From the sequence record PP526765: a stretch of 64,000 nt of DNA. One strand, 5' to 3'. The DNA is from Escherichia phage HK3. The translations under genes and the position numbers were made by a program. The notes under the pieces were generated by a model, which worked only from the letters and a program-made list of their open reading frames with translations, ran no database searches and had not been told where the DNA came from. How positions within the stretch are numbered: position 1 is the stretch's first letter; every line of letters begins with the position of its first letter. Below, piece by piece: positions 6,105 to 34,839 of this stretch.

Positions 6105-8471
6105 ATGCGCATGGTAAACGACCACGCAGAAGTGATTAAGAGTTCAACTTCTTTAGAGACATCTCAAGCACAGATTACAATGACACCTGAAATGTTCAGC
6201 CTTCTGAGTTCTGGTGTATATACCTTTAAAGAGCGAGCAGTAATTCGTGAACTGTCATGTAACGCAGTAGATGCTCAGAAAGAAGCTGGAAAAGAGAACA
6301 TCCCGTTCCATGTGCATTTACCGACTCGTTTTGAGCCTTACTTTGAAGTTCGTGATTTTGGAACTGGATTGACTCATGATAAAGTTATGAGTTTGTATCT
6401 AAACTACGGGGCTTCTACAAAGAATGACTCTAATGACTACATTGGTGCAATGGGTATCGGCTCAAAATCCCCATTTGCAATTGCTCAGTCATTCACAGTG
6501 TCCAGTTATGTTGATGGTGTTGTTAATAAGTATTCTGTTTATCTTGAGAATGGTATTCCTCAAGTAACTAAGCTGACCACCAACCCAACAAAAGAGCCAA
6601 ATGGTTTAGCTGTACGTGTAGCAGTTGCTGACCATCGTATCTCAAAGTTCTTTGAAGAGGCTGGTCACGTATACTCATACTTTGCTGTAAAACCGGAAAG
6701 TAACATTGAGTATGACGATGTATTAGCAGATATGAATGTCATTGCCCGTGAAGAAGGTGTTTATGATGCCATGATTCATAAGCAAAGCTGGCGTTCTAGT
6801 GGTAACAGGACAGAGTTTAATGTAGTGATGGGTAACATTGCCTACCCTGTTAACATGGAAGCACTACTTGGTGATGATTTCTTTAAAGTCTTGCCAGAGT
6901 TTTTCCGTAGGAGCGTAGACCTTGTAAACATCTATATGCCTATTGGTTCAGTTGCTATTGCAGCTTCTCGTGAAGCATTGCAGATGAATGATACAACAAA
7001 AAATGTTATCATTGAGGCTACTAAAAAGATAACTGAAGCAATTACAAAGGATGTTATCAAGAAAGTTAACAGTCAACCCACACTCATGGATGCTGCACAG
7101 GCTTATGCTGAGTTACGTTTGAACTCACGAGAGATGTTTAATGCTGTGTGTCCAAAGCTAGAGTGGGGAGGTGTTAAGCTTGATTCTCTGGAAGAAGAAT
7201 TACTAAATATTCGTCGTGGAATTATCTATGCAGAAGACGGCTCAGTTATCTATGAACGTGATGGTAAAGGTAATATTAAGGTTGACAGGAACGGAAACAA
7301 CATCCCTAAAGTAGATTATCTTTATGACCCAGTTGCTTATGTCAAGTTCAACTCTTTAGAAAGTAAGATTCGTGCAACAGCACTTTCCTACACTCAAGAG
7401 GCAAGTATGTTCAATATCTTTGGCGCAATGCGTAAAAGCCAAATTGAACAGTTCTTGTTTGTTATCAATGACCGTCGCAATAAAAACGGTACTGAGAAGA
7501 CTGTAGGACGCAATCAAATCTTGCGTGGCGCATGTCGAGACTATGCCAGTGAGTCAAGTCTGTTTCACAGATACAATGGTATCGTCTTTGTATTCTCGAC
7601 TGAAAAAGAGTTAGACGACCTAATCAATCTGCACAAACTTGATAAAAGCTTGTTAAAGATTGTGAAGATGTCTGATAAGGAACATCATTATCAGCGTAAA
7701 GAAGCTGTAAGAGGTGTTGTAAAACTCTGGAAAGCTGTTCCAGCAGAAGGTGTAGCTTCCTATAAAGAGGTGTCAGAAGACTTAGACACAATTGAAGAGC
7801 CTCAACTTTATATCAAGGCGGTAGGTGATACTGTTGATGGTGAATGTTTTTGCTCGTCTCCAGAAGATGTAGCTAAGTCAGTTGCCAATGTCATTGAAAA
7901 GACAGTCTATGTTTTCCGAAAAGCAAATTGGAAAAAGATACCAGAAGACTGGATTGAAGTAGATGAGAAGCTCTTGAACGACAGCTTAACTGATGTTCAC
8001 TGGATTAATCATAACAGGTATATGACACGTATCTATATGAATGGTGTCCTAGACCTTACAAGCAGTTGGATTATTGCCAGAAACTTTACGTTCAATAACA
8101 GGAAGATTTCTCGTGGTTATTGTTATTCACGAGACACAAACAAAACTATCTTCTTAGAAGGTAATGAAGATGCTGTTGAGGCAATGTTTGGTAAAATCCA
8201 ATACGTTGCTGCACCGTTTGCATACACTTACACTATTAGTCGTTTGCAAACTTTGAAAGAGTGCCTTGACAATGATACAAAGCTGTACAAGAAAATTAAG
8301 AAAGCTGGTGACCGTATGGTCATTAAGGTGACAAACTATCTTTCAAAAAGAAAACAAGAAAACTTCTTGCTTTCTCATTTAGATTGGAATAAAGTGTCAC
8401 CCATCGAAGTGAGTAAGTTCTTAGGCTTTGATGTGAAGTGTGTTCCAGAAGGGACTACAATTTACGATTAA
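6105..8471 (+). CDS. rIIA: rIIA-like protein (GHKL-type ATPase fold)
   Basis: N-terminal region reads like T4 rIIA (..RAVIRELSCNAVDA.., RDFGTGL.., GIGSKSPF); 788 aa; AAGAGGAAAG Shine-Dalgarno. Confidence 0.75.
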   Translation: MRMVNDHAEVIKSSTSLETSQAQITMTPEMFSLLSSGVYTFKERAVIRELSCNAVDAQKEAGKENIPFHVHLPTRFEPYFEVRDFGTGLTHDKVMSLYLNYGASTKNDSNDYIGAMGIGSKSPFAIAQSFTVSSYVDGVVNKYSVYLENGIPQVTKLTTNPTKEPNGLAVRVAVADHRISKFFEEAGHVYSYFAVKPESNIEYDDVLADMNVIAREEGVYDAMIHKQSWRSSGNRTEFNVVMGNIAYPVNMEALLGDDFFKVLPEFFRRSVDLVNIYMPIGSVAIAASREALQMNDTTKNVIIEATKKITEAITKDVIKKVNSQPTLMDAAQAYAELRLNSREMFNAVCPKLEWGGVKLDSLEEELLNIRRGIIYAEDGSVIYERDGKGNIKVDRNGNNIPKVDYLYDPVAYVKFNSLESKIRATALSYTQEASMFNIFGAMRKSQIEQFLFVINDRRNKNGTEKTVGRNQILRGACRDYASESSLFHRYNGIVFVFSTEKELDDLINLHKLDKSLLKIVKMSDKEHHYQRKEAVRGVVKLWKAVPAEGVASYKEVSEDLDTIEEPQLYIKAVGDTVDGECFCSSPEDVAKSVANVIEKTVYVFRKANWKKIPEDWIEVDEKLLNDSLTDVHWINHNRYMTRIYMNGVLDLTSSWIIARNFTFNNRKISRGYCYSRDTNKTIFLEGNEDAVEAMFGKIQYVAAPFAYTYTISRLQTLKECLDNDTKLYKKIKKAGDRMVIKVTNYLSKRKQENFLLSHLDWNKVSPIEVSKFLGFDVKCVPEGTTIYD

Positions 8472-21927: not shown

Positions 21928-22521
21928 TTAAACCAGTGTTTCCAGAACTGTCTTCAGTGATGACTTGGTTGTCTGATAAAAATGAGTAAATCCATTGTTA
22001 TTATCAAATACCTGCATCATGATATCATCTCCCTTGATTGGGTACACTCGGATATCATAGTGAAACCCATTAAAGACAGCAGAACCATTACAGAATGCAC
22101 TAAAGTCATCCACTGAAATGTACTCTTCATGACCTGTGATTTTTATACAAACACCTTTACTTGGTCTCTTAGGGTTAATATCTTCCATCACAGACATACT
22201 CTGACCACCAAGAGATACCATAGTGACTACTTTACGGTTCTTCTGTCTAAAGTACATCTTAACTTTCTGTAAAGTGTCTTCATAGAACGGATAAGACCTT
22301 TCTACAAAGACTCCTTCAAGTGGCTCTTTACCATTTTCAACTTCTCTGTTATGCCGTACTGCAAAGATAATTTGTTGGAACCAGTCAAGATTTTCTTCGG
22401 AGAGTGCTTCCCGAATATCAGCCCAATCAAGTACTAGGTAGTTGCCTTCAACTTCTTTTAAGTTATCTTTTTCCATATCTATCACACCATTATCGTAAAA
22501 CTTGGTAATCTGGTACTGCAA
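21928..22521 (-). CDS. hypothetical protein (197 aa)
   Basis: ORF track; co-directional tightly packed block. Confidence 0.5.
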   Translation of the reverse strand: MQYQITKFYDNGVIDMEKDNLKEVEGNYLVLDWADIREALSEENLDWFQQIIFAVRHNREVENGKEPLEGVFVERSYPFYEDTLQKVKMYFRQKNRKVVTMVSLGGQSMSVMEDINPKRPSKGVCIKITGHEEYISVDDFSAFCNGSAVFNGFHYDIRVYPIKGDDIMMQVFDNNNGFTHFYQTTKSSLKTVLETLV

Positions 22522-29338: not shown

Positions 29339-30754
29339 ATGAGCAAGTTATTTAAACATGCGCACCTTCATGCAGGTCGAACTGAAAATGGTGCTGTAAA
29401 CCATACTTCATCAATGTCTGCTCTGGTAGACTTCTACAAAGCCGCTGGTTCAAGCCGTAGCAATGTAGAAATCTTACCAGACCTGTTCTACAAAGCTTTG
29501 CGTGAGGATGTTGATGTTGCAGTTCGTATTTTACTGCATATGCGAGATGTACGAGAAGGTATGGGCGAGCGTAAAGCTTTCCGAACTGTTTTGCTTCAAG
29601 CGATTGAAGATAAGGTTTTAGAACCTACACAGGTTCTTCGCATTATGGATAAGATTGCAGAACTTGGTCGTTTTGATGACTTCAAAATCTTTGTAGGTAC
29701 TCGTTTTGAGACAGACGCCTTCAAACATTTAGAAGCAGCATTACTAGACCCTGCAACAGCAGGTTTAGCAGCTAAGTGGTTGCCACGAGTAAAACCACGC
29801 CACAAACAGTTTGTAAAACGTTTCTGCAAGTTTGCAAACTTAAGTGAGAAGGAGTATCGCACACTGTTGTCTGCACTATCTGATACGGTTGAGCAAAAAA
29901 TCTCTGCTAATGAGTTTGGTAAGATTGACTACAGCAAGATTCCTTCACTAGCTGCTGCACGTTACCAAAAACTCTTTAACCGTAAAGATGGTGAACGTTA
30001 CAAAGCTTACATCGAGTCGCTCTCAAAGGGTGAGGCTAAGATTAATGCTGGTGCTGTTTACCCATACGATGTGATTAAATCTATTAAGTATGGTAATGCA
30101 GATGTTGCTAATGAGCAGTGGAAAGCACTTCCAAACTGGATGGCAGAAGGTGAAAACATCTTGTGTATGACTGATGTTTCAAGCTCAATGTCTTGGGTGA
30201 ATCTTGGTTCAATCACTGCCCTTGATATTGGTGTATCACTTGCTTTGTATGTAGCAGAACGCAATACTGGTTGCTTTAAAGATGAGTTAATGGTTTACTC
30301 AACAAACCCTCACTTCATTGAACTGAGTGGTGATTTACGAAACCGTCATCGTCAGGTGATGCGTCACGTTGAATATGGCTCAACTAACTTACAAGCAGCT
30401 TTTGACCGTATTCTTGAAATAGGTAAGAGAAACAACTTGACTCAGAAAGATATGCCAAGTAAGCTTATTATCTTCTCTGATATGGAGTTTAATCAGGTTG
30501 ATGGTGCAAATGGTCATACAAACTTTGAAGCAATTCAGAGTAAGTACAAAAAAGCCGGATACGAAATGCCACAACTAGTATTCTGGTACTTAGCAAACCG
30601 TAATGGTACTTGCGAAGTATCTGTTAAGGATAATGGTGTAGCAATGGTATCAGGGTTCTCTCCAGCCACTTTAAAAGCTCTACTTGGTGGTGAGAAGTTT
30701 GACCCAATCAGCGTAATGCTCAAAGCAGTAATGATTGACCGTTATATCTGGTAA
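29339..30754 (+). CDS. vWA-domain protein with MIDAS motif; candidate Ro60/TROVE-like (Rsr-like) RNA-binding protein
   Basis: C-terminal vWA signature ILCMTDVSSSMS (DxSxS); about 470 aa with helical N-terminal region; sits directly upstream of the tRNA/ncRNA cluster; TROVE assignment is inference. Confidence 0.4.
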   Translation: MSKLFKHAHLHAGRTENGAVNHTSSMSALVDFYKAAGSSRSNVEILPDLFYKALREDVDVAVRILLHMRDVREGMGERKAFRTVLLQAIEDKVLEPTQVLRIMDKIAELGRFDDFKIFVGTRFETDAFKHLEAALLDPATAGLAAKWLPRVKPRHKQFVKRFCKFANLSEKEYRTLLSALSDTVEQKISANEFGKIDYSKIPSLAAARYQKLFNRKDGERYKAYIESLSKGEAKINAGAVYPYDVIKSIKYGNADVANEQWKALPNWMAEGENILCMTDVSSSMSWVNLGSITALDIGVSLALYVAERNTGCFKDELMVYSTNPHFIELSGDLRNRHRQVMRHVEYGSTNLQAAFDRILEIGKRNNLTQKDMPSKLIIFSDMEFNQVDGANGHTNFEAIQSKYKKAGYEMPQLVFWYLANRNGTCEVSVKDNGVAMVSGFSPATLKALLGGEKFDPISVMLKAVMIDRYIW

Positions 30755-30772: not shown

Positions 30773-30801
30773 TTGACAATGTGTTTGATACCCTTTAATA
30801 T
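30773..30801 (+). promoter_or_regulatory. promoter TTGACA-N17-TAATAT with flanking inverted repeat GGGTAT / ATACCC
   Basis: read directly. Confidence 0.5.
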
Positions 30802-30863
30802 GTTCTACATAGAAACGAGATGAGAGCTTTTCTAAGATACTGAAAAATATTTTAAAAAAGTTC

Positions 30864-30893
30864 TTGACAACCACTAAAAAATAATGTTAAAGT
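30864..30893 (+). promoter_or_regulatory. promoter TTGACA-N18-TAAAGT for the tRNA cluster
   Basis: about 25 nt upstream of the first tRNA; flanking inverted repeat ACCACT / AGTGGT. Confidence 0.45.
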
Positions 30894-30919: not shown

Positions 30920-30996
30920 CTCTGTTTAGCTCAGCTTGGTAGAGCGTTCCGTTTGGGGCGGTAAGGCCGGAGGTTCAAGTCCTCCAACAGAGACCA
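30920..30996 (+). tRNA. tRNA-Pro (anticodon UGG)
   Basis: 7-bp acceptor CTCTGTT/AACAGAG, D-stem GCTC/GAGC, T-arm GGAGG-TTCAAGT-CCTCC, encoded CCA. Confidence 0.6.
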
Positions 30997-31087: not shown

Positions 31088-31162
31088 ACAGAAGACCAAT
31101 TACAGCAAACTTAATCTTATTCATCTGAAGGTAAATCGGACAAAGAAGAGATTTGGTCTGGT
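31088..31162 (+). ncRNA. structured spacer element a (conserved 5' CAGAAGACCAATTACAGCAA, 3' TTGGTCTGG)
   Basis: 7-bp long-range stem AGACCAA/TTGGTCT; one of four sibling elements. Confidence 0.45.
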
Positions 31163-31255: not shown

Positions 31256-31320
31256 CAGAAGACCGTTTACAGCAATATTTATTAAATTTTTAGCGGAAAA
31301 ATTGAAAGATACGGTCTGGT
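31256..31320 (+). ncRNA. structured spacer element b (5' CAGAAGACCGTTTACAGCAA, 3' ACGGTCTGG)
   Basis: stem AGACCGT/ACGGTCT; GT/AC replaces the AA/TT of elements a and c. Confidence 0.45.
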
Positions 31321-31481: not shown

Positions 31482-31569
31482 TGTCGTTATCCCGTAGATG
31501 GTAGCGGTGGGGACTGTAAATCCCTTGTCATTGAGACTCGGTAGGTTCGACTCCTACACGGCACACCAA
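31482..31569 (+). tRNA. tRNA-Tyr (anticodon GUA), long variable arm
   Basis: acceptor GTGTCGT/ACGGCAC, anticodon stem GGGGA/TCCCT, loop CTGTAAA, 88 nt, T-loop TTCGACT, CCA. Confidence 0.6.
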
Positions 31570-31630
31570 TTTTGAGAGGGCTATTTAGCCCCTCCCTTAA
31601 AGAGTTCTTACGAGTACCCTTTAAAGGAGC

Positions 31631-31704
31631 AGAAGACCAAATACAGCAAGTTACTTAAAATTTCAAGCCAATTCAATTTTGAAAAATTTAAAACTTGGTC
31701 TGGC
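31631..31704 (+). ncRNA. structured spacer element c (5' CAGAAGACCAAATACAGCAA, 3' TTGGTCTGG)
   Basis: stem AGACCAA/TTGGTCT. Confidence 0.45.
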
Positions 31705-31717
31705 TCAACAAATTTAC

Positions 31718-31848
31718 AGAAGACCGTTTACAGCAAAACTTAAACAATCTATTTCTCGGTAAAGAAAAGGTGAAGGTTCGATTCCTTCACTCGGCAGATG
31801 TCGAGTTGGTGTAATGGTAGCACTTAAGATGATAAACAACGGTCTGGT
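31718..31848 (+). ncRNA. structured element d with circularly permuted tRNA-like module (candidate YrlA-like Y RNA)
   Basis: order: 5' stem strand AGACCGT (31722) - T-arm GAAGG-TTCGATT-CCTTC (31773-31789) - acceptor-like hairpin ACTCGGC-AGAT-GTCGAGT (31790-31807) - D-arm GTGT-AATGGTA-GCAC (31810-31824) - 3' stem strand ACGGTCT (31840-31846). Confidence 0.5.
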
Positions 31849-31849
31849 A

Positions 31850-31985
31850 ATTATCTTTGCAGTAGCTTATGTGGCTAATTATATCGTCCCATGAGTGCCG
31901 ATGAATTTCCTTAGCATGATTCTAGATTAGCTTAATAGGAAATGACTCTACAGACCCTTTAGCAAGGTCTGCGTAGGTTACTGCA
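31850..31985 (+). ncRNA. element enclosed by a perfect 16-bp inverted repeat (AATTATCTTTGCAGTA ... TACTGCAAAGATAATT) around 104 nt
   Basis: arms at 31850-31865 and 31970-31985; interior has further hairpins (AGACC...GGTCT); no ORF. Confidence 0.5.
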
Positions 31986-31999
31986 AAGATAATTTAATA

Positions 32000-32075
32000 G
32001 AAGTGTAGCAGAATGGTGATGCGGCAGACTTTTAATCTGATAGGTGATGGGTTCGAATCCCTCCACTTCTACCAA
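32000..32075 (+). tRNA. tRNA-Lys (anticodon UUU)
   Basis: perfect acceptor AGAAGTG/CACTTCT, loop CTTTTAA, T-loop TTCGAAT, CCA; T-stem only 3 clean pairs. Confidence 0.5.
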
Positions 32076-32234: not shown

Positions 32235-32249
32235 TTTCAATAAAGTTGT

Positions 32250-32278
32250 TGACATTGAGATGTGACCACTTTATAGTA
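32250..32278 (+). promoter_or_regulatory. internal promoter TTGACA-N17-TATAGT inside the tRNA cluster
   Basis: read directly. Confidence 0.55.
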
Positions 32279-32481
32279 ACCTTAGTTTTCGTTGCGTAGC
32301 GTCTATTTTGCAAATTTAAAATAAATGCAAACGACAATGTTTTTCTGGCAGTAGCTTGATAGGCTAAACACCAGTGAGGTCTTCCAATCCCTCATCAAAG
32401 AATTTGGCGTACTAGCCCACGGTATGATTAATAAGGTGGGCATCTTTAAGGGTTTTTTAAGAGAGTCTTTAAAGATTAATG

Positions 32482-32558: not shown

Positions 32559-32700
32559 ATAGTTAGCAGATTGCTTAGACGACCTTATCGGGTCTCCGTG
32601 TAGGGAGGTGGTCTGTATCTCATGTTTTCCAGAACATGTAAATAATCTGAGAAGGGGCTTTACAGTGTTGAGATAATACGGTAAGCTTCGAATTATAGTA

Positions 32701-32783
32701 TGGGACGATGTTAAGACTCTAAGGCATGAGCAACGGCTTCCAACACCGTTTCAAAGGGATTCAACTCCTCCGTCCCATGCCAA
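32701..32783 (+). tRNA. atypical tRNA-like gene (possible anticodon CCA, Trp); irregular D and T arms
   Basis: perfect 7-bp acceptor ATGGGAC/GTCCCAT plus G-CCA, but T-stem has only 3 clean pairs and the D-region is 26 nt. Confidence 0.35.
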
Positions 32784-32796
32784 AGTCTTATTAGGG

Positions 32797-33040: not shown

Positions 33041-33063
33041 AAGACCTGTTTAGGTCTTTTTAG
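33041..33063 (+). terminator. short hairpin AAGACC-TGTTTA-GGTCTT followed by TTTTT inside the tRNA cluster
   Basis: read directly; may instead be a processing signal. Confidence 0.35.
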
Positions 33064-33141
33064 AGGGCTTCTAAGGTTATTACAGCTTGTTGTGGAACCT
33101 TGTTGCTTAGGTTCTTAGAAGTTCTCTAAAAAGATTTAATG

Positions 33142-33796: not shown

Positions 33797-33910
33797 TTTT
33801 GGGAGAGCACTATGAGTGATAAGTCAATAGCAAAAAAGTTTAGAGCGTCATACCTAAACAGACGTAAAAACAAAGATTGTGAAAAACTGTATGGTGTTCT
33901 TGTAGGTAAG

Positions 33911-33986: not shown

Positions 33987-34004
33987 TTTTAAGAGGCTAT
34001 TTAG

Positions 34005-34808: not shown

Positions 34809-34839
34809 CTTCTAAGGATTCTTACGAGAGTCCTTAAAT

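Follow-up and report, generated by a model that had tools for sequence, protein, structure and literature searches.

An RNA Element Bounded by a Long Inverted Repeat in the tRNA Array of a Felix O1-Like Phage, Downstream of a Ro60-Like Gene

Genomic Location of Element e and Its Inverted Repeat

The DNA analyzed here (the window) is a stretch of 64,000 nucleotides (nt) from Escherichia phage HK3 (PP526765), a Felix O1-like phage of the Ounavirinae. It harbors an array of 25 transfer RNA (tRNA) genes on the + strand, between positions 30920 and 35922, with the gene of a Ro60-like protein upstream of it. The spacers of the array contain four RNA modules, designated a–d, and an element, designated e, which is bounded by an inverted repeat and followed by tRNA-Lys(UUU). 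The first-pass annotation of the window proposed that this repeat could mark a stable non-coding RNA, a scaffold for processing, or a miniature mobile element. The present analysis showed that e is an RNA feature and not a DNA or mobile one, and that it is very probably a functional structure of the + strand RNA.

Both arms of the perfect 16-bp repeat reported in the first-pass annotation exist, although their coordinates had to be corrected. The 16-mer AATTATCTTTGCAGTA forms the left arm at 31849–31864 and its exact reverse complement forms the right arm at 31979–31994, and the positions given earlier were thus displaced by 1 nt on the left (31850–31865) and by 9 nt on the right (31970–31985). 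The enclosed segment had been described as 104 nt long, which is true of arms of 21 nt (31849–31869 and 31974–31994) containing two G.U/G.T positions, whereas the perfect 16-nt arms are separated by 114 nt. When G.U pairs are admitted, the closing helix of e reaches 22–23 bp, with 23 pairs in RNA folding. The placement between module d and tRNA-Lys was correct, as d runs to 31847 and tRNA-Lys begins at 31999. No other perfect inverted repeat of at least 16 nt with arms within 250 nt was found in the window, and when the window was simulated 100 times with a first-order Markov model, two such repeats arose in total. The borders of the element (CTGGT/AATTATC...GATAATT/TAATAG) showed no direct repeat around e.

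Structure and Strand of Element e

The + strand RNA of 146 nt was predicted to fold with an energy of −51.4 kcal/mol (z = −6.0), and none of 200 dinucleotide shuffles was as stable; the minus-strand fold of e reached −43.2 kcal/mol. The fold prediction showed the presence of three hairpins (H1–H3) inside the closing helix. RNAalifold analysis of ten window-type sequences from three genera gave 49 pairs, six of them changed on both sides, which were distributed over the closing helix (alignment columns 1–23/124–146), H1 (36–56), H2 (57–95), and H3 (103–123). In the same alignment, 99% of the cells were paired as against 29–44% in slid controls, and the covariation score of 0.108 (0.068 in shuffles) was not reached in any of 500 shuffles. 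Comparison of the window-type closing helix with that of the Felix O1-type revealed seven double (compensatory) and two single (wobble) changes, with 22/22 pairs kept.

The pattern of changes also identified the strand. Two adjacent pairs of the closing helix (columns 16/131 and 17/130) swap between A-U/G.U and G.U/A-U, and several G.U pairs do not vary at all; read from the opposite strand, they would become A.C mismatches, and only the + strand RNA accounts for them. The covariance model R2, which was built from the window-type sequences alone, scored 165 bits on the + strand and 30 bits on the minus strand. Among 17 + strand sequences from the different lineages, several closing-helix pairs occurred as three pair types, and the stem of H3 was found to be wholly changed with its loop kept.

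The three hairpins differ in the kind of evidence that they show. The 22-nt segment GUCGUCCCAUGAGUGCCGAUGA of H1 is nearly invariant, two of the ten window-type sequences differing in one base each, and no covariation was seen there; hence, H1 is backed by conservation and folding. In H2, the lower stem covaries, with changes on both sides in four of its eight pairs, and the apex AUUCUAGAUU is common to the window-type and the Felix O1-type. The H3 loop, C(U)UUAGCAA or CUUAAGCAA, is constant in six lineages, on stems that vary as AGACC/GGUCU, AAACC/GGUUU, AGAC/GUCU, AGUC/GACU, GUUC/GAAC, and AAAGUC/GACUUU. As a separate observation, the H2 apex carries the 6-nt palindrome UCUAGA (31921–31926), which is kept in the Felix O1-type and is replaced by ACUAGU in the relative at locus L148 (∼8349–8354; comparison loci are cited by such numbers), and which could serve as a site of loop–loop (kissing) dimerization; no CUAG-centered palindrome was seen in the versions of e at L149 or L150.

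Distribution of Element e Among Phages

The region matched 253 phage records, nearly all of them Ounavirinae belonging to Felixounavirus, Mooglevirus, and Suspvirus, with Escherichia, Salmonella, Shigella, and Citrobacter as hosts, and the annotation at e in these records consisted of nothing except occasional short hypothetical open reading frames (ORFs). The window version was present at full length in ∼59 of 234 records, and the others, including Felix O1, matched in the 3′ third only; in Felix O1 (L001, 1750–1893), the same outer helix encloses a largely different interior. The element was found at the same site in Felixounavirus, Mooglevirus, and Suspvirus as well as in three more distant relatives. 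Beyond the window type, R2 matched the Felix O1-type (E = 2e-10), the Yersinia phage vB_YenM_P778 (L150; 1e-7), L148 (2e-6), and L149 (4e-4), and gave no match in 55 unrelated viral loci. The homologs of e end 1–16 nt before tRNA-Lys(UUU), to which they are directly upstream in L001, L148, L149, and L150. Compensatory conservation in at least six phage lineages at this position supports the stable non-coding RNA and the processing scaffold alike, and the two may both hold.

The mobile-element proposal, in contrast, did not survive the comparison. The presence/absence polymorphism that had been suggested as a check was absent from ∼250 related phage records, in which no empty site was found and only the interior varied. 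The window contains one full element, without a target-site duplication at its borders, and ∼234 related records have it at the same site; among 5,426 complete E. coli genomes, none matched e. A search of 185,579 bacterial and archaeal species genomes with the H3 pattern gave one hit, at a Bartonella locus (L155), which lacked the helix, was not matched by R2, and was regarded as chance; a 19-mer match at L021 was likewise rejected as a chance match. A single copy at a fixed site, without empty sites, bacterial counterparts, or a target-site duplication, thus excludes a mobile element.

With Rfam 15, e gave no match at the gathering threshold, at which the matches of the window were tRNAs only, nor at E ≤ 10 beyond noise (best overlap, MIR476, E = 6.8). 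Cores of self-cleaving ribozymes (hammerhead, hairpin, and twister) were sought by eye and in the Rfam output, and none was found. A literature search on non-coding RNA and transcriptomics of Felix O1 and Felixounavirus yielded nothing useful. Element e is a new RNA family of a familiar sort, a non-tRNA RNA of a phage tRNA cluster located next to a Ro60-like gene.

The Upstream Gene Encodes a Ro60-Like Protein

The ORF directly upstream of the array matched DUF2828 and DUF7788 in Pfam, with a weak vWA match, and PHROG 850, which is annotated as "RNA-binding protein." An AlphaFold (AF2) model based on a 34-sequence alignment showed a mean predicted local distance difference test score (pLDDT) of 88 and a predicted template-modeling (TM) score (pTM) of 0.88, and it was used in place of a single-sequence model (pLDDT 44), which was discarded. 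The top 10 Foldseek matches of this model in the Protein Data Bank (PDB) were all full-length matches to Ro60/Rsr/TROVE proteins (E from 2e-8 to 9e-7, TM up to 0.66) and included Ro60 of the Thermus phage phiLo. The MIDAS (metal ion-dependent adhesion site) residues D279, S281, and S283 (D-x-S-x-S) were invariant. At the level of sequence profiles, Ro60 was touched by the vWA region only (E ∼0.5). Judged from its modeled fold, the product of ORF 29339–30754 is a very divergent structural homolog of Ro60 (TROVE and vWA) that has no sequence-level TROVE match.

Homologs of this protein number in the thousands: of the candidates scored, 2,836 had E ≤ 0.001. The homologs whose source was traced were located in phage genomes or phage-sized contigs, and Pfam and NCBIfam do not label the family as Ro60. 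The analysis suggests that the partnership of Ro60 and Y RNA is far commoner in large phages than the TROVE-domain annotation shows. The ortholog of the protein in phage Bas63, gp130, has been described as structurally Ro60-like and as countering the Ppl defence in the PhageMaP preprint (2024; PMC11482910), which also speculated that some of the Bas63 "tRNA genes" might be Y RNAs and identified none.

Modules a–d and Their Relation to Hairpin H3

Modules a–d share a common layout, namely, an outer stem of 4–5 bp and an internal loop, together with the stem AGACCNNN/NNNGGUCU, UACAGCAA as a single-stranded motif, and a variable insert (Table 1). Both module stems covary, the outer one as UUAC/GUAA and UUGC/GCAA and the inner one as AGACC/GGUCU and, in L149, AGACU/AGUCU. 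In the insert of module d, a variable arm comes first and is followed by a canonical T arm, then by an acceptor-like stem-loop that is capped, and last by a D arm. The acceptor-like stem-loop is entirely different in sequence and nevertheless paired in the window, phiSUSP1, and Michonne, and the alignment of d showed compensatory changes in 14 of 31 pairs. The order of variable arm, T arm, acceptor, and D arm is that of YrlA, the tRNA-like Y RNA found beside Ro60 genes of bacteria and phages (Chen et al., 2014; PMC4201824). The modules carry CAGAAGACC, which resembles the published Ro60-binding motif and does not match it. A kink-turn reading of their AGA/G internal loop was dropped on inspection, as the non-bulged strand lacks GA.

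The covariance model R1, which was built for module d from Felix-like sequences and L149 only, also finds the short modules a–c. It gave three to four matches in a 143-kb phage (L152; among them 1e-11, 1e-9, and 5e-4) and single matches in the Vibrio phage phi-pp2 (L151; 6e-5), L153 (1e-4), and L150 (2e-4). In distant phages, such matches were confined to loci that had been fetched through homologs of the Ro60-like protein and lay on the strand of that gene, and no match was obtained in ∼690 kb of unrelated viral DNA. Relatives of the modules adjoin Ro60-like genes in L148–L153. When IMG/VR was scanned with a degenerate pattern of the modules, the matches were mostly single ones that arose by chance in contigs of no relation, and these loci were reused as negative controls.

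Module d begins with UUAC-AGA-AGACC-GUUUACAGCAA and ends with GGUCU-G-GUAA. On alignment with the modules, 17 of 18 positions on the 5′ side of H3 agreed with a–d when two short gaps were set aside, and GGUCUG on the 3′ side was identical. The alignment of H3 with module d indicates that H3 is a reduced, insert-less copy of the module, which is borne as a side branch of a larger RNA.

Table 1. Positions of element e, its parts, and neighboring features in the window.
Feature	Position	Strand	Remarks
Ro60-like protein gene	29339–30754	+	471 amino acids; DUF2828 and DUF7788/vWA; directly upstream of the array
Two tandem sigma70-like promoters	30773–30893	+	At 30773 and 30864, before the array
Module a	31089–31161	+	R1 E = 6e-6
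Module b	31256–31319	+	R1 E = 2e-7; outer stem UUAC/GUAA, in phiSUSP1 UUGC/GCAA
Module c	31630–31703	+	Same closing stem and motif; insert short and different
Module d	31717–31847	+	YrlA-like; closing stem CAGAAGACCGUU...AACGGUCUGG and UACAGCAA around a tRNA-like insert
Element e	31849–31994	+	146 nt; closing helix and three hairpins; 4 nt upstream of tRNA-Lys(UUU)
Closing helix of e, 5′ strand	31849–31871	+	Pairs with 31972–31994; all 22 pairs in 10/10 window-type sequences; first 16 nt are the left arm
Hairpin H1	31884–31904	+	5-bp stem UCGUC/GAUGA; conservation and folding
Hairpin H2	31905–31943	+	Lower stem covaries (both sides changed in 4/8 pairs)
Hairpin H3	31947–31975	+	CUAC-AGACC-CUUUAGCAA-GGUCU-GC-GUAG
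Closing helix of e, 3′ strand	31972–31994	+	Last 16 nt are the right arm; ends 4 nt before tRNA-Lys
tRNA-Lys(UUU)	31999–32074	+	First of the Lys-Met-Ile sub-cluster

Comparison With Y RNAs and T4 RNAs

Several features of e are similar to those of Y RNAs. It is located ∼1.1 kb downstream of a gene with a predicted Ro60 fold and on the same strand, its predicted ends pair into a long covarying stem closing a multi-loop, and it sits among modules that combine a common stem with variable "effector" inserts, as in Y RNAs and YrlA, module d having the YrlA order. However, e lacks the GGUCCGA/GNCGAAN0–1G/CGAA motif in a bulged stem, its U-rich plus AGCAA motif is placed on a terminal hairpin and not on the closing stem, and the phage protein, which would be a candidate partner, is a very divergent Ro60 (DUF2828). 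Unlike YrlA and the neighboring module d, e has no series of T arm, acceptor-like stem-loop, and D arm. Known Y-like RNAs beside a phage Ro60 gene are Yrl1/2 of the Thermus phage phiLo (PMC12135203).

A second comparison is offered by rnaC and rnaD (species 1 and 2; 119–139 nt) of phage T4, which, similar to e, are small non-tRNA RNAs on the tRNA strand of a phage tRNA cluster and, according to the annotation, are presumably excised from the same precursor as the tRNAs. They differ from e in that rnaC ends in a T-arm-like hairpin, which e does not have, and that no Ro60-like gene was found beside the T4 tRNA cluster in the 5 kb examined. Homology was not detected, as neither R1 nor R2 matched the T4 locus at L154 1909–2172. 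A match of R1 at L154 3327–3444 was rejected because it spans two adjacent tRNAs, the type of false positive against which Chen et al. warned.

Transcription of the Array and Helices Preceding tRNA Genes

No terminator-like site was found on the + strand between the two promoters and e, and hence e should share a transcript with the tRNAs. Inside the array, a sigma70-type promoter close to the consensus (TTGACA, 17-nt spacer, TATAGT) was also observed at 32249–32277, after tRNA-Ile, and implies a second transcription unit.

Helices of 16–28 pairs were found to end 1–7 nt before tRNA-Lys (31999), tRNA-Arg (32481), tRNA-Leu (33141), and tRNA-Arg (33910), and such pre-tRNA helices are present in L148, L149, L150, and L153 as well. 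At random positions, 13 pairs were reached in 3.75% of cases, and the maximum was 18. The longest of the individual hairpins (33050–33139; 28 pairs, z = −5.3) precedes tRNA-Leu(UAG) and occurs also in L148, and those at 32441–32476 and ∼33798–33906, with 16 pairs each, precede tRNA-Arg(UCU) and tRNA-Arg(ACG); all three end 2–4 nt before their tRNAs. RNase III of E. coli takes part in the maturation of T4 tRNAs (PMC4810235). The feature of an RNase III site, i.e., about two turns of double-stranded RNA flanking the unit, is present in e, which has 22–23 bp and ends 4 nt before tRNA-Lys. Similar to the helices of the T4 tRNA precursor (PMC4810235), e thus has a helix of at least 20 bp that flanks a polycistronic unit before the first tRNA of a sub-cluster; in contrast to them, it encloses 100 nt of conserved, structured interior.

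Proposed Role of Element e as a Processed Spacer RNA

The explanation that we prefer, with a probability of about 0.5, is that e is a processed stable spacer RNA, in which the helix marks a processing site and the H3 loop probably ties the RNA to a Ro60-like/Y-like system. A polycistronic transcript would start at the promoters near 30773 and 30864. RNase P, by cutting where tRNA-Lys begins 4 nt downstream, would define the 3′ end of e, whereas the 5′ end of e would come from an RNase III-type cut at or in the long helix or from a cut between d and e. These cuts would part the upstream Y-like RNAs from the Lys-Met-Ile tRNAs and would leave a compact, exonuclease-resistant RNA. On this RNA, H3 would present the same U-rich plus AGCAA motif, on an AGACC/GGUCU stem, that closes modules a–d, and owing to this common motif the excised RNA would probably be bound by the partner of the modules, for which the Ro60-like protein encoded upstream is the best candidate. 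Taken separately, a role of the closing helix in precursor processing is more likely than not, and the view of e as a ligand or partner in a Ro60-like ribonucleoprotein (RNP) system is put forward with more reserve, as a possibility somewhat short of even odds.

Several points weigh against this explanation. The module model R1 does not match e, and e lacks the CGAA/GNCGAAN0–1G motif bound by Ro60 as well as a T or D arm. The stem of H3 does not always equal the module stem of the same genome, as seen in L148 and L149. The Ro60-like loci L151–L153 have modules but no match of R2, which indicates that e is peculiar to the Felix O1-like lineage and that the Ro60-like system does not require it as a partner. 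The strict linkage of e is to tRNA-Lys and is tighter than that to the Ro60-like protein. H1 and H2, which make up most of the interior, diverge strongly between lineages, as would be expected of a spacer, and the covariation counts across lineages (17 sequences) were obtained on a model-fitted alignment, which favors structure. Finally, beside the established structure, strand, conservation, fixed single-copy position, and shared motif of e and the Ro60-like fold of its neighbor, there stand a discrete stable product, cleavage sites, and binding by the Ro60-like protein, which we infer.

Alternative Explanations

The main rival is that e acts only in cis, as a processing or insulating element: a leader hairpin, serving as an RNase III site or as an aid to RNase P, for the tRNA-Lys-Met-Ile sub-cluster. 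The excised piece would be degraded and would do nothing in trans. The constant location of e 1–16 nt upstream of tRNA-Lys(UUU), the long helices with unrelated interiors that abut other sub-clusters (32441–32476, 33050–33139, and near 33798), the strong divergence of H1/H2 between lineages, the absence of e from distant Ro60-like loci, and the T4 precedent of RNase III in tRNA maturation are all in agreement with such a role. However, a bare cleavage helix needs neither a 9-nt hairpin loop conserved in six lineages nor a nearly invariant 22-nt segment in H1 and a covarying stem in H2, and the motif common to e and modules a–d would be left unexplained. Cis action is rather unlikely to be the whole function of e.

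Anticodon nucleases frequently target tRNA-Lys(UUU). The linkage of e to this tRNA, together with its conserved loops and the T4 precedent of the stable RNAs rnaC/rnaD within a tRNA cluster, would also suit a stable trans-acting RNA that is unrelated to the Ro60-like protein, e.g., a decoy or regulator directed against host RNases or defences targeting tRNA. This is improbable, as the stem of H3 and the anticodon stem of the adjacent tRNA-Lys do not covary, so that mimicry is not supported, and as the sole long complementarity of e in the window (22357–22372) is not conserved. The specific idea that H3 imitates the anticodon stem-loop of tRNA-Lys (CAGA...UCUG, CUUU...) was rejected because the stem of H3 is altered in Mooglevirus, L148, and L149 and tRNA-Lys shows no corresponding change there.

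A decayed tRNA gene was also considered, since the interior opens with 20 bases, GCAGTAGCTTATGTGGCTAA, that are similar to the start of the acceptor/D arm in tRNA-Phe and in a tRNA-like stretch at 32348. It is a very improbable origin: e has no T arm, ARAGORN called no tRNA cloverleaf in it, the Rfam tRNA model gave no match at E ≤ 10, and purifying and compensatory selection acts on a different fold.

The complementarity mentioned above is due to a third exact copy of the 16-mer AATTATCTTTGCAGTA, which was missed in the first-pass annotation. It is located at 22357–22372 on the minus strand, inside ORF 21928–22521(−), where it codes for QIIFAV, and with one flanking base it is complementary to the 3′ arm of e over 17 nt. 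By our own estimate, far fewer than one match of this kind would be expected by chance in the window, and e could in principle be the source of an antisense RNA that regulates this ORF. The ORF site is, however, not conserved at the homologous position in Felix O1 or phiSUSP1, changes in the arm are unmatched in the ORF, and the arm is locked in a 22-bp helix; antisense regulation is already unlikely in the extreme, and the copy was treated as a coincidence or a very recent event.

Lastly, a miniature inverted-repeat transposable element (MITE) or its remnant, which the perfect 16-bp terminal inverted repeats and the length of ∼150 bp call to mind, is close to refuted by the occurrence of a single element in each genome, at a site that is the same in all relatives, the lack of a flanking direct repeat, the absence from hosts, and arms that evolve by compensatory and G.U changes as the strands of an RNA helix do.

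Significance for Phage tRNA Arrays

Of the earlier interpretation, the non-coding RNA and processing options have stood and the mobile option has not; the Ro60-like gene and the Y-like modules sharing a motif with e were not seen at that stage. Phage tRNA arrays are usually annotated as tRNAs and "spacers," and at least five of the spacers here are conserved structured RNAs. The exact coordinates, structures, and shared motif of a–d and e turn the published speculation on Y RNAs into directly testable candidates, and for e itself the main value lies in a clear, falsifiable model and in the removal of the mobile-element reading. A wider proposal, which is speculative and on balance unlikely, would be that Felix O1-like and other phages with DUF2828-type Ro60, including KVP40-like Vibrio phages, encode a set of Y-like RNAs in their tRNA arrays; it would comprise a–d and e, with e as a distinct ligand class presenting the AGCAA hairpin on a long helix, and would form an anti-defence or RNA-quality-control RNP with the Ro60-like protein.

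Other Observations in the Array

The window lacks tRNA-Asp(GUC), which is carried after tRNA-Tyr by Felix O1, VpaE1, Mooglevirus, and Suspvirus (31568/31569 in the window as compared to L001 1387–1470). The junction lies in the CCAAT common to consecutive tRNA 3′ ends, which suggests a deletion by short-repeat recombination. At 32698–32785, a tRNA-like sequence missed by ARAGORN was observed, with a 10-bp terminal stem GUAUGGGACG/CGUCCCAUGC followed by CA (3′ end ...AUGCCA) and a hairpin that weakly resembles a T arm; the sequence may be an unusual tRNA or one in decay. A degenerate tRNA-like stretch is present at 32347–32420, and its first 20 bases, GCAGTAGCTTGATAGGCTAA, are 80% identical to bases 11–30 of e. 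In L149 (7600–7700) and L150 (9015–9150), tRNA-like genes with a long internal insertion and an intact acceptor and T arm are conserved in two distant Ounavirinae-like phages. Between the tRNA sub-clusters of the window, the motif UUUUAAGAG(N)CUUUA is found repeatedly, as are small GC-rich hairpins, at 31569–31600, 32455–32471, 33987–34003, and 34820–34836.

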